DNA of 49,318 bases from Candidatus Kaiserbacteria bacterium. GTDB lineage: Bacteria > Patescibacteriota > Minisyncoccia > Phycocordibacterales > UBA2100. How positions within the stretch are numbered: position 1 is the first letter of the stretch; each line of letters starts with the position of its first letter. This document shows positions 7,193-17,548 of the stretch, in pieces. A program made the translations under genes and the position numbers. The stretch lies in NCBI GenBank assembly GCA_016186695.1, contig JACPLC010000003.1, positions 1 to 49,318 of the forward strand, written 5' to 3'. The notes under the pieces are model-generated. The model was given only the letters and a program-made list of their open reading frames with translations. It had not been told where the DNA came from and made no database searches.

Positions 7193-7338
7193 GTTAGATT
7201 TTGTTACGAGCAAAGCGAGTTAGAAAATCTTACACCCTGTTAAATCCTCGCGCGACGCGCGAGGCCGGCAAAGCCGGATTTAACAGGGTCATCGTACTGT
7301 CTGCCGCTCGCAAAGCTCGCATGCATACAGTACGATGA
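7193..7338. mobile_element. Putative non-autonomous hairpin/inverted-repeat cassette (empty counterpart of 15954..16328)
   Basis: Left hairpin with CGAGCAAAGCGAG loop; IR ACCCTGTTAAAT/ATTTAACAGGGT (7234-7289) enclosing two mini hairpins; right 12-bp hairpin 7289-7338. Confidence 0.65.
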
Positions 7339-7345
7339 TAGCATC

Positions 7346-15953: not shown

Positions 15954-16328
15954 GTTAGTTTTTCTTACGAGTGGAGCGAGTTAGAAATAACTTACACCCG
16001 CCTAAATTTTGAACGAAAGATTTTTAATGTATCTGGAATAGACCTCTCTAGATAATTCCTACCCCACCCAGTCTTAAGGTACGTCTCGCGTTGCATTGCG
16101 TCCTTCCGACTCGCATGCAACTCGCAGTACAAAAGTTCGAGCGGTCTTCGCAAAGATGTTGCCGGAACGCGTCCAGCATTATGCTCTGCGAGTCGCGCCT
16201 TTATATCACGGCATGAACCTGTGTACAAATTGCCGTCTTTCAGACTACCGAGGACGTAGACGCAATGCATCGTTCAAAATTTGGGCGGGTTAGAAAAATA
16301 TAGTCGCTTCACTCGTTATTTTTCTAAC
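15954..16328. mobile_element. Putative GIY-YIG-carrying hairpin/inverted-repeat cassette
   Basis: 21-bp IR with 1 mismatch (15996-16016 / 16270-16290) brackets the nuclease ORF; outer hairpins at 15954-15995 and 16289-16328. Confidence 0.7.
15992..16270 (-). CDS. Small stand-alone GIY-YIG nuclease
   Basis: VYVL...LYTG...RLAEHN...T..RRP..L...E...AMQRETYLK. Confidence 0.92.
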   Translation of the reverse strand: MHCVYVLGSLKDGNLYTGSCRDIKARLAEHNAGRVPATSLRRPLELLYCELHASRKDAMQRETYLKTGWGRNYLERSIPDTLKIFRSKFRRV

Positions 16329-16728
16329 AAACCTCGTTCCATGGACCGAACAATGCGCCTTCGCTCACGAGCGTTTTCATTATGATATCTACGATAAGCC
16401 ACGCGGCTAGAATGAGCACGAGGCCGACCCCGACCGTCCAGAAAATCTTTTTTGCATTAGTCGCCTTGCCAGAATCCCCTCCCGCGGTAATGTATTGCCA
16501 TCCGGCGTAGGCAAAAAGAAAGGCGGCGAGGAAAATGGCGATGTAGATGCCGGCATTGATCGTGTTTTGCGCAAGCTGGGCGATGTCACAAATGCCGCAG
16601 GTTTTCGCGGCGCCTGCGCGGCAGTGCTCCGGCACAATCGTGGGGATTTGCGCGAATGCAATTGAGGGAGCGAGCACGATGAGAATCAGACCCCTCCTTA
16701 GCCATCTGACCGCGCGATTTTCAAACAT
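16324..16728 (-). CDS. TrbC/VirB2-like pilin-type membrane protein
   Basis: Signal ending AFA, Cys motif, two TM helices around YITAGGDSGKATNAKK, LILAAWLIV. Confidence 0.8.
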   Translation of the reverse strand: MFENRAVRWLRRGLILIVLAPSIAFAQIPTIVPEHCRAGAAKTCGICDIAQLAQNTINAGIYIAIFLAAFLFAYAGWQYITAGGDSGKATNAKKIFWTVGVGLVLILAAWLIVDIIMKTLVSEGALFGPWNEVC

Positions 16729-16842: not shown

Positions 16843-17460
16843 ATGTCTGCAATTCCGCAAAATGAATGGAAAAAAGTTGGAGAATTGTATTCATCTGGTC
16901 TGCCGATGAGAGCGGTTGCCAATCAGATGAGCGTATCGATAGATGCGGTGACATACGTGTTACGCCGAATAAAAGTGCCGCGGCGTGATTTTAAAGCAGC
17001 AAGTCGTCTCGCCTACGAAGCTAAGACGCCAACATTCAGCATTCGCGCGGGGAACGCCAGACGTGTGTCCGAGTTAGATGCAGTGGGAGCCATGCTCTAT
17101 TGGGCGGAAGGATATAAGAGAGAAACAGCTAGCGGGATAGATTTTGCAAATAGTGATGCCGATATGAGCAAGTTATTCCTTAAATTCCTCCAAAAAAGGT
17201 ACCGGCTTGATGAAAATCGGTTGCATTTTTCGATCTACTATTACGCTGATCAGGACTTGGAGAGTATTCTTGCTTTTTGGTCCCAAAAACTAGAGAAGCC
17301 ATTAGGGCAATTCAAAAATCATTATCGTAAACCAAATCCACGGGATGGTACCCGTAAACTCCCATACGGTGTGCTTCACATCAGGTACAATGACAAGAAG
17401 CTTTTACGAGATGTACTAAGTTTGATAGAATCCTACAAACGCAAGTATGTATTGCGTTGA
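16843..17460 (+). CDS. HTH plus LAGLIDADG-like endonuclease-family protein
   Basis: N-terminal HTH-like ELYSSGLPMRAVANQMSVSIDAVTYVL; GAMLYWAEG helix, IDFANSD, KLFLKFL, YGVLHIRY. The fold assignment is inferred. Confidence 0.7.
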   Translation: MSAIPQNEWKKVGELYSSGLPMRAVANQMSVSIDAVTYVLRRIKVPRRDFKAASRLAYEAKTPTFSIRAGNARRVSELDAVGAMLYWAEGYKRETASGIDFANSDADMSKLFLKFLQKRYRLDENRLHFSIYYYADQDLESILAFWSQKLEKPLGQFKNHYRKPNPRDGTRKLPYGVLHIRYNDKKLLRDVLSLIESYKRKYVLR

Positions 17461-17463
17461 AAT

Positions 17464-17546
17464 GCGCCGGTGGCGGAGCAGCTAACGCACGTGACTGTAG
17501 ATCACGCGGACTATGTCCTTCGGGGGTGCAAGTCCCTCCCGGCGCA
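17464..17546 (+). tRNA. tRNA-Tyr(GTA) with non-canonical D and T loops
   Basis: Acceptor GCGCCGG/CCGGCGC; CGTGA-CT GTA GA-TCACG; variable arm; T arm GGGGG-TGCAAGT-CCCTC. Confidence 0.9.
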
Positions 17547-17548
17547 CA

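Follow-up and report, generated by a model that had tools for sequence, protein, structure and literature searches.

The 49,318-nucleotide window analyzed here (contig JACPLC010000003.1 of assembly GCA_016186695.1, which is contig 2 of the 0.90-Mb, 10-contig, 54% G+C genome of a Candidatus Kaiserbacteria (Patescibacteria/CPR) bacterium that we call G000) carries on its minus strand, at positions 15954-16328, a 375-bp cassette in which a gene for a small GIY-YIG nuclease is enclosed by hairpins. The comparative data make it highly probable that this cassette is a mobile element and that the window holds its gene-carrying form: inverted-repeat ends are common to gene-carrying and gene-less copies, and copies lie at unrelated loci for which relatives possess empty sites. 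To the whole explanation, in which the cassette is an autonomous copy of a family of three-hairpin mobile elements driven by their nuclease, we assign a probability of about 0.6. Coordinates are window positions unless a contig or locus is named, and G and L numbers are our handles for genomes and loci.

Layout of the cassette and its nuclease

The cassette spans the interval from the stop codon of a gene for a T4SS_pilin-like membrane protein (16324-16728, minus strand; PF18895, E 3.1e-8) to the start codon of rpmG, encoding ribosomal protein L33 (15795-15953, minus strand; PF00471, E 3.9e-18) and followed by a tRNA-Trp gene. Read on the minus strand, it opens with a left terminal hairpin module, H1 (16289-16328), whose perfect 12-bp stem (16289-16300 with 16317-16328; I6) contains the pilin stop codon in its outer part (16324-16326). 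The central inverted repeat, H2, has its 5' arm at 16270-16290, the last base of which is the A of the GIY-YIG start codon, and its 3' arm at 15996-16016, where the last seven codons of the gene are encoded. The loop of H2 is formed by the nuclease open reading frame (ORF) itself (15992-16270, minus strand), a single-domain gene of 92 codons whose stop codon (15992-15994) lies beyond the 3' arm. The two arms are 21 nt long and 95% complementary with one mismatch (pair I1), and the ACCC at the outer base of the 5' arm is kept throughout the element family. When three mismatches or fewer are allowed, the window has no match to the arm pattern other than these two sites, compared with a shuffle expectation of 0.03 and two hits in none of 100 shuffles. 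A right terminal module, H3 (15954-15995), has an imperfect stem, ends in ...TAAGAAAAACTAAC directly on the rpmG ATG (15953), which adjoins the last base of the cassette, and is the best conserved part of the element family (alignment A1, mean column identity 86%). The loops of H1 and H3 (16304-16316 and 15967-15979) are 92% complementary to each other (I5). A preliminary description made from the sequence had read the region as a 92-residue GIY-YIG ORF bracketed by a 21-bp inverted repeat with one mismatch, starting at the inner edge of one arm and read at its C-terminus through the other, between outer hairpins with near reverse-complementary loops that fill the whole gap from pilin stop to rpmG start, and every part of this picture was confirmed at the coordinates given above.

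A promoter-like TAGAAA-18-TATATT lies within H1 and matches at 9 of 12 positions, no better than the shuffle expectation; a terminator scan found none, and in Rfam neither the cassette nor the gene-less copy described below had a match, tRNA alone being matched. The GIY-YIG domain is encoded by the only ORF of the cassette, which specifies no DDE, HUH, serine or tyrosine recombinase.

The protein matches PF01541 over residues 1-67 (E 2.6e-13, 50.5 bits versus a cut-off of 22.6). The catalytic set of GIY-YIG enzymes comprises the two tyrosines of the GIY and YIG motifs, an arginine, a histidine or tyrosine, and a metal-binding glutamate. Among 29 aligned relatives Y16, G18, R26, H30, P43, E62, and K66 are invariant, while Y5, Y48, and E50 are near-invariant (Y5 and E50 at 90% or more); the window protein has Y5, Y16, G18, R26, H30, E50, E62, and K66. 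An AlphaFold2 model of the protein has a pLDDT of 95.8, and its best PDB matches in Foldseek are all GIY-YIG proteins, namely UPF0213 protein BH0048, Slx1, At-HIGLE, and EF2693, with I-TevI and UvrC lower; the Slx1 and UPF0213 matches (7cq2/7cq3/6seh, 1zg2, 1ywl) have a probability of 1.00 and TM-scores of 0.54-0.66 over the query. At the level of sequence, the only relatives of solved structure are two UPF0213 proteins (E 3e-4), and no NCBIfam family was matched at its cut-off, TIGR01453 reaching 18.3 bits versus the 56.05 required. The ORF is under purifying selection: the ratio of nonsynonymous to synonymous substitution rates (dN/dS) is 0.06-0.17 in pairwise comparisons among the five closest copies where dS was computable, one of which has an internal stop. 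The C-terminal residues SKFRRV, which are followed by the stop codon, do not vary among these five copies, four of which are intact. Between copies at different junctions dS ranges from 0.8 to above 2.

Copies at other junctions, with and without the gene

Seven GIY-YIG copies with at least 66% protein identity were found in six of 116 congeneric, Kaiserbacteria-like genomes, and two of the seven are interrupted by an internal TAG. By the Pfam names of the flanking genes, they lie at the junction of pilin with rpmG (G000, G063, and G042), of rplN with rplX (G016), of infC with rpmI (G127), and of ssb with rpsR (also G063); the copy in G087 lies between two unnamed genes. At the rplN-rplX junction G000 itself has a 6-nt spacer, and at the pilin-rpmG junction G016 has an 84-nt spacer and no cassette.

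The pilin-rpmG junction was compared across 30 rpmG loci fetched from the genus, of which 26 have a co-oriented pilin gene directly upstream; the other four were set aside, two for having no pilin match and two for having the pilin gene elsewhere or inverted. The cassette is present at two of the 26 junctions (G000 and G042), an unrelated 472-nt spacer at one, and spacers of 18-159 nt at the remaining 23, showing that the gene is not fixed at this locus. By eye, most of the short spacers (L036-L064) carry TTGCG or TTGAC, 17 nt, and TATAGT about 7 nt ahead of the rpmG ATG, and a TATAGT so near the start codon suggests, as judged from sequence, that the rpmG mRNA of these cassette-free relatives is leaderless. 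In the window this native promoter-like spacer is gone and the cassette stands in its place. Because G063 is the nearest relative of G000 among these loci by MiaA and pilin identity, the copies of the two genomes may share one ancestral insertion. The flanks of the G042 copy are nearer to those of cassette-free genomes (pilin identity 56-58%, versus 46% to G000), which implies either a second gain at the pilin-rpmG junction or many losses. One cassette-free junction, the 159-nt spacer of L052 (G019), includes a stretch resembling the 3' arm of another GIY-YIG cassette subgroup (...TCTCTAACGGGG), which may be the scar of an element lost from this same position.

Gene-less miniatures of the element occur as well. 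At 30 rplN-rplX junctions of the genus the GIY-YIG cassette was found once, a gene-less version of 132-138 nt twice, another inverted-repeat element once, and a spacer of 0-34 nt 22 times. The gene-less version consists of a left hairpin, arms closing a short GC-rich filler, and a right hairpin ending on the ATG, and it has the same right end as the cassette. The 14-nt right-end motif was searched for throughout the genus, with one locus fetched per genome; in these loci and three more stretches it occurs 35 times, 26 times with the full layout, five times in what look like partial copies beside an ATG, and four times apparently by chance. Since this motif, with one mismatch allowed, is barely commoner than its reversed control, we base the number of copies on the full layout and on BLAST. 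The 26 full-layout copies include 25 distinct ones, two of which carry the ORF, the other 23 being gene-less with arms 6-85 nt apart. With a 139-nt gene-less copy from G000 as the BLAST query, matches with E of 1e-3 or lower were obtained in 47 of the 116 genomes, the highest number scored being at least 11 in one genome; for some genomes the figure covers the best seven candidates only.

Two gene-less copies reside in G000. The 139-nt copy lies directly ahead of dnaK (contig 9, 42732-42870; L137:733-871), and the ORF upstream of it runs into the left hairpin and ends at a TGA located there, so that this copy supplies the stop codon of the upstream gene. The second is within the window on the minus strand (7193-7340), between the divergent genes serS and dprA as named by Pfam, with the BLAST match itself covering 7193-7289. 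Its H3 ends in ...AACAAAATCTAAC on the serS ATG (7192), its H2 arms lie at 7234-7245 and 7278-7289, and an H1-like hairpin with an 11-bp stem (7290-7340) comes near to the dprA start (7346). An earlier search of G000 that allowed the arm and loop motifs only a few mismatches had returned no further copies, a misleading result, as both miniatures, found later by BLAST, have arms and loops that differ from those of the GIY-YIG copy.

Among the 25 distinct full-layout copies the right end is followed at once by ATG in 22, by C and then ATG in two, and by AC and then ATG in one, and the right-end search pattern contained no ATG. The element is always in the orientation of the downstream gene, and the downstream genes are unrelated to one another (rpmG, rplX, rpmI, rpsR, dnaK, serS). 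No conservation is seen in the codons that follow the ATG, and upstream of it the empty sites have nothing in common. A stop codon, either TAG or TAA, stands at the start of the left end or within it, with TGA in one variant of the left hairpin. Lying at the upstream stop codon, or supplying it, the left end leaves a tightly packed operon intact.

The stems of H2 and of the type-B left hairpin show compensatory change. Folded as single-stranded DNA (ssDNA), the 139-nt gene-less copy is predicted to form three hairpins (-37.8 kcal/mol, z -8.2, with none of 200 shuffles as stable). The predicted fold of the full cassette (z -6.6; equal stability in 0 of 100 shuffles) has the H2 arms paired on either side of the ORF and one outer loop paired with the other, making two conformations possible. 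Across 25 copies the 12 arm positions of H2 are 96% paired, compared with 68% for shuffled partners (maximum 79% in 1000 shuffles), and for the left hairpin of type B, the commoner variant, the figures are 82.5% and 71%, with none of 1000 shuffles reaching the observed value; because the copies are related, such shuffles overstate their independence. The H2 arms fall into 15 types, with several pair types at positions 5-12 and four outermost pairs that hardly vary. The H1 of the cassette in the window is of type A and stands outside the type-B test, and the right module, being nearly invariant, gives no covariation evidence.

Inverted repeats around the gene extend beyond its closest copies. 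We assembled 34 GIY-YIG loci, five of them the small GIY-YIG genes of G000 and 29 from relatives found among 40 other genomes searched (24 congeneric and 16 from other families of the order), and scored for each the best ungapped inverted repeat that pairs the start region of the ORF with its end region. A bracketing repeat scoring 12 or more is present at 18 of the 34 loci, relative to a background of 1500 random G000 window pairs of the same geometry with a 99th percentile of 10 and a 99.9th percentile of 12. The 5' arm lies about 5-20 nt ahead of the start codon or just inside the ORF, with the 3' arm overlapping the stop codon. In sequence the arms vary by subgroup, with an outer end that is mostly CCCG or ACCC, and four of the 18 loci (L014, L015, L017, L020) come from other families of the order. 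In the simpler relatives that have no outer hairpins, the 3' arm (...GGGT) mostly abuts the ATG of the next gene as well.

Metagenomic contigs from the likely source habitat also hold pieces of the element. In one groundwater run two contigs join the arms without the ORF; these have a short side of 21 nt and probably derive from other loci or organisms. The left hairpin module (window 16252-16345) reaches a depth of 6-24x the local baseline in the groundwater runs X1, X2, X5, and X6, with unlike sequence and loose ends on both sides. High depth with unlike flanks implies that those communities hold this module widely in other genomes or at other loci.

Several further features were seen beside these loci. 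At L015 and L018 (G039 and G009) the 3' arm of a GIY-YIG cassette continues into the stretch GGAGGAAAGTCCG, which probably represents the conserved 5' region of RNase P RNA; if so, the two copies may abut rnpB and not a protein start. At five of the 30 rplN-rplX junctions, the one bearing the GIY-YIG gene included (L077, L091, L098, L101, L103), a different hairpin insert of about 60 nt follows codon 7 of rplX, and the first 21 nt of rplX are present as a diverged duplicate upstream of the insert. The insert would represent a second small element, one by which the start of a gene is restored. Other small GIY-YIG genes without a bracketing repeat (G000:C3:51965-52201, G000:C2:60788-60982, G000:C8:95302-95526, L009, L012, L021, L025-L028) lie directly 5' of a tRNA gene, following a diverged duplicate of the 5' part of that tRNA that is often split by a GC-rich hairpin. 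Within the same protein group they look like a branch that targets tRNA genes. The tRNA gene beside one of these paralogs (L005; contig 2, downstream of 60788) has a 21-nt tandem duplication in its D-arm/anticodon-stem region, reflecting either a broken tRNA or an assembly slip. In the window itself, a 205-residue ORF on the plus strand (16843-17460) ends 3 nt ahead of a tRNA-Tyr gene (17464-17547); it matches no Pfam family and has no relative of solved structure, and may be a homing-endonuclease cassette directed against the tRNA gene.

Probable movement of the element and competing explanations

The preliminary description had proposed that the cassette is a small, palindromic mobile element in its autonomous form. 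That proposal is supported by homologs that carry flanking inverted repeats, by the presence of the element at multiple junctions together with its absence from most pilin-rpmG loci, and by the gene-less versions. The element consists of H1, H2, and H3 in a row, with either the GIY-YIG ORF or 6-85 nt of filler as the loop of H2. H1 and H3 are its terminal modules, each about 40 nt long, and the loop of one is an inverted copy of the loop of the other. The 92-residue nuclease would recognize these hairpins in ssDNA and cut at the hairpin base; the cut would release the element or nick it, the move would then be completed by repair or replication functions of the host, and gene-less copies would be mobilized in trans. 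The hairpin-cutting role is suggested by the precedent of the Ssn nucleases discussed below, by the Slx1-like fold of the protein, and by the conserved fold of the element, and we put the chances that the protein moves the element in this way at about even.

A number of observations weigh against this interpretation of the cassette as a nuclease-driven mobile element. To our knowledge GIY-YIG enzymes hydrolyze DNA and do not join it, so the element cannot be self-sufficient, and the remark in the preliminary description that GIY-YIG domains do not usually act as transposases still stands. No target-site duplication was seen at the pilin-rpmG or rplN-rplX junctions, where the left junction is not placeable to the base, and the loss of the whole native pilin-rpmG spacer is not explained by simple insertion. 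In four groundwater runs, among contigs that would drop rare variants, none has pilin joined to rpmG with the cassette missing, and insertion polymorphism was not observed. Miniatures occur in 47 genomes versus six for the close GIY-YIG gene, and many genomes with miniatures have no close copy of the gene; the two gene-less copies of G000 have H2 arms unlike those of its GIY-YIG copy. As a copy counter the 14-nt right-end motif had to be dropped, with 136 hits compared with 113 for its reversed control at one mismatch. Finally, by eye the mismatches in H2 comprise seven that are wobble-compatible in the sense and five in the antisense direction, and this lack of strand bias means that the folding strand, and DNA as opposed to RNA, are not told apart.

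In one alternative, which we consider unlikely, the structure would be a transcribed cis-acting RNA module kept by the host, perhaps as an RNase III processing site formed by the 21-bp stem or as an A-rich translation leader free of a Shine-Dalgarno sequence, with the GIY-YIG gene as a passenger. In its favor, all copies take the orientation of the downstream gene, 22 of 25 end exactly on the ATG, the stems show compensatory change, and the right module is highly conserved and A-rich. At the pilin-rpmG junction the cassette replaces the promoter-like spacer of rpmG, and this gene must therefore be expressed through or from the cassette; by position count, the promoter-like site in H1 would start an RNA at the 5' arm. 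However, patchiness within the genus and at a single junction is unexpected for a needed regulator, the copies precede unrelated genes, no Rfam family was matched, the promoter-like site is no better than shuffles, and the strong purifying selection on the nuclease ORF would be needless for a passenger. An RNA function is in any case compatible with mobility, and would explain why the element is tolerated but not how it has spread.

It is improbable that the gene is instead a free-standing GIY-YIG homing gene whose product cuts the empty pilin-rpmG junction of related cells and which is copied into it by recombination, with the repeats serving as expression or processing signals. Homing genes of this free-standing kind are present in T-even phages, the pilin-rpmG junction is filled in lineages that are not nearest to each other by their flanks (G000/G063 and G042), and the tRNA-adjacent paralogs with their duplicates of tRNA 5' parts resemble the outcome of homing with co-converted flanks. 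Homing to a cognate site cannot, however, give a pattern in which close copies occupy five unrelated junctions and gene-less ones many more. The bare 92-residue catalytic domain has no DNA-binding extension of the I-TevI type and falls well short of TIGR01453, both I-TevI and UvrC rank below Slx1 and UPF0213 proteins in the fold search, and nothing upstream of the ATG is common to the empty sites.

Equally doubtful is a domesticated system of the Ssn type, in which nuclease and hairpins restrict incoming ssDNA during transformation and the copies are old and immobile: domestication has been proposed for SsnA and NTS of Neisseria (PMC11893778), DprA is encoded next to one gene-less copy of G000, the ORF is under purifying selection, and dS values of 0.8 to above 2 between junctions are compatible with old events, but internal stops in two of seven close copies and the patchy distribution fit gain and decay better than a fixed host function, the highest count of at least 11 BLAST matches in one genome is far below the hundreds of NTS, and none of the 34 loci carries the SRM motif as published.

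If the nuclease does move the element as proposed, then at 375 bp the cassette would be among the smallest autonomous mobile elements of bacteria, and it would be driven by a class of enzyme not known to drive prokaryotic transposition. By lying exactly on start codons, it shows a way for a parasite to get into the operons of a 0.9-Mb genome without breaking genes. For annotation, it is of consequence that cassettes of this kind take the place of promoters and spacers and give upstream genes additional stop codons. In each subfamily a tiny nuclease goes with a hairpin of its own, a kind of pairing that the authors of the Ssn study propose for use as ssDNA tools (PMC11893778).

Relation to known systems

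A comparison of the cassette with described small repeats and nuclease genes shows partial likenesses to several of them. Miniature inverted-repeat transposable elements such as Correia/NEMIS, ERIC, and RUP are likewise short, palindromic, transcribed intergenic DNA with terminal inverted repeats and a possible effect on the expression of neighbors. Unlike the present element, in which a GIY-YIG gene stands alone, they derive from or are moved by DDE-type insertion sequences and have target duplications. Repetitive extragenic palindromic (REP) sequences and REPINs with their RAYT genes also combine one small gene set among inverted hairpin repeats with dispersed gene-less repeats and compensatory stems. 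In contrast to the GIY-YIG protein, which is a hydrolase only, RAYTs are HUH/Y1 enzymes that both cut and join DNA; also, REPs are found mostly 3' of genes, whereas the cassette copies lie on start codons in one orientation. Homing genes such as the Seg genes of T4-like phages and I-TevI (1ln0/1mk0) share the catalytic fold, the character of a small selfish gene between conserved genes, and the patchy occupation of a junction. They differ from the cassette, which has no DNA-binding extension, lies at several unrelated junctions, and possesses gene-less derivatives and structured ends. In structure, the predicted model comes closest to Slx1 and UPF0213 proteins; in sequence, the match to UPF0213 is weak. 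Slx1 is a structure-selective nuclease that cuts flaps and junctions, but it has a RING domain and the partner Slx4, and is a repair enzyme and not part of a mobile element.

The literature search covered article texts, in which no description of start-codon cassettes or of their miniatures was found; supplements were outside its scope, and that of PMC11893778 may list homologs from the candidate phyla radiation (CPR). Two articles touch on related genes, one on rRNA insertions in CPR bacteria that mentions GIY-YIG ORFs in non-intron inserts (PMC11270868) and one that includes GIY-YIG genes among transferred genes (PMC12455944).

The closest parallel is the Ssn system. Ssn proteins are GIY-YIG proteins of about 94 residues (CDD cd10448) that cut ssDNA next to NTS/SRM hairpins; their genes are flanked on both sides by these hairpins, and gene-less repeats occur elsewhere in the genome (PMC11893778). 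SsnA of Neisseria meningitidis cuts NTS-bearing ssDNA and lowers transformation (PMC11893778). The article describes the NTS-ssnA-NTS layout as "identical to" an insertion sequence, for which reason its authors propose domestication, and its Discussion raises the parallel with REP/RAYT (PMC11893778); mobility of the Ssn unit is put forward there as a hypothesis only (Chenal et al., Nat Commun 2025, PMC11893778). The likeness to the cassette lies in a single-domain GIY-YIG protein of about 90-95 residues, a gene between hairpin repeats, and the dispersal of gene-less repeats. In contrast to Ssn/NTS, the ORF described here lies inside the loop of a long-range stem, the copies are placed on start codons, and a comparison of genomes allows movement from locus to locus to be read.

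The two systems are also distinct in sequence. The published SRM motif was found within 500 nt of none of the 34 GIY-YIG loci, and the genome has seven hits versus a range of 4-10 over 10 shuffles; as a control, four flanking hits were found at L075, an Azospirillum plasmid locus where a GIY-YIG gene separates sufB from sufC. With this SRM-flanked homolog the window protein shares 31% identity (46 bits), and in an all-against-all comparison the window protein and 27 relatives group apart from both the Azospirillum homolog and Bacillus subtilis YazA. The Azospirillum homolog draws only L030, whose 30-nt repeat starts with CGTC and ends in ATCCAG as NTS does, and YazA draws five UPF0213-like loci. 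Membership in the Ssn group is defined by blastp with E < 1e-10 at 75% coverage to SsnA, or by a top CDD hit to cd10448 (PMC11893778). A further mark of the group is site-specific cleavage beside the hairpin that acts on ssDNA and spares dsDNA and RNA. By analogy, the element may work in the manner of an Ssn nuclease with its hairpins, a comparison that leaves cd10448 membership unassigned. If the proposed movement by the nuclease is correct, the element would provide a plausible mobile-element origin for the partnership of Ssn nuclease and hairpin repeat, which has so far been described as a biochemical activity and a modulator of transformation. More tentatively, and at somewhat less than even odds, the cassette may represent a new class of prokaryotic transposon, in which a sole GIY-YIG protein of about 90 residues would read its own three-hairpin ssDNA fold and insert it in one orientation before start codons, with Ssn/NTS as its decayed or domesticated relatives.

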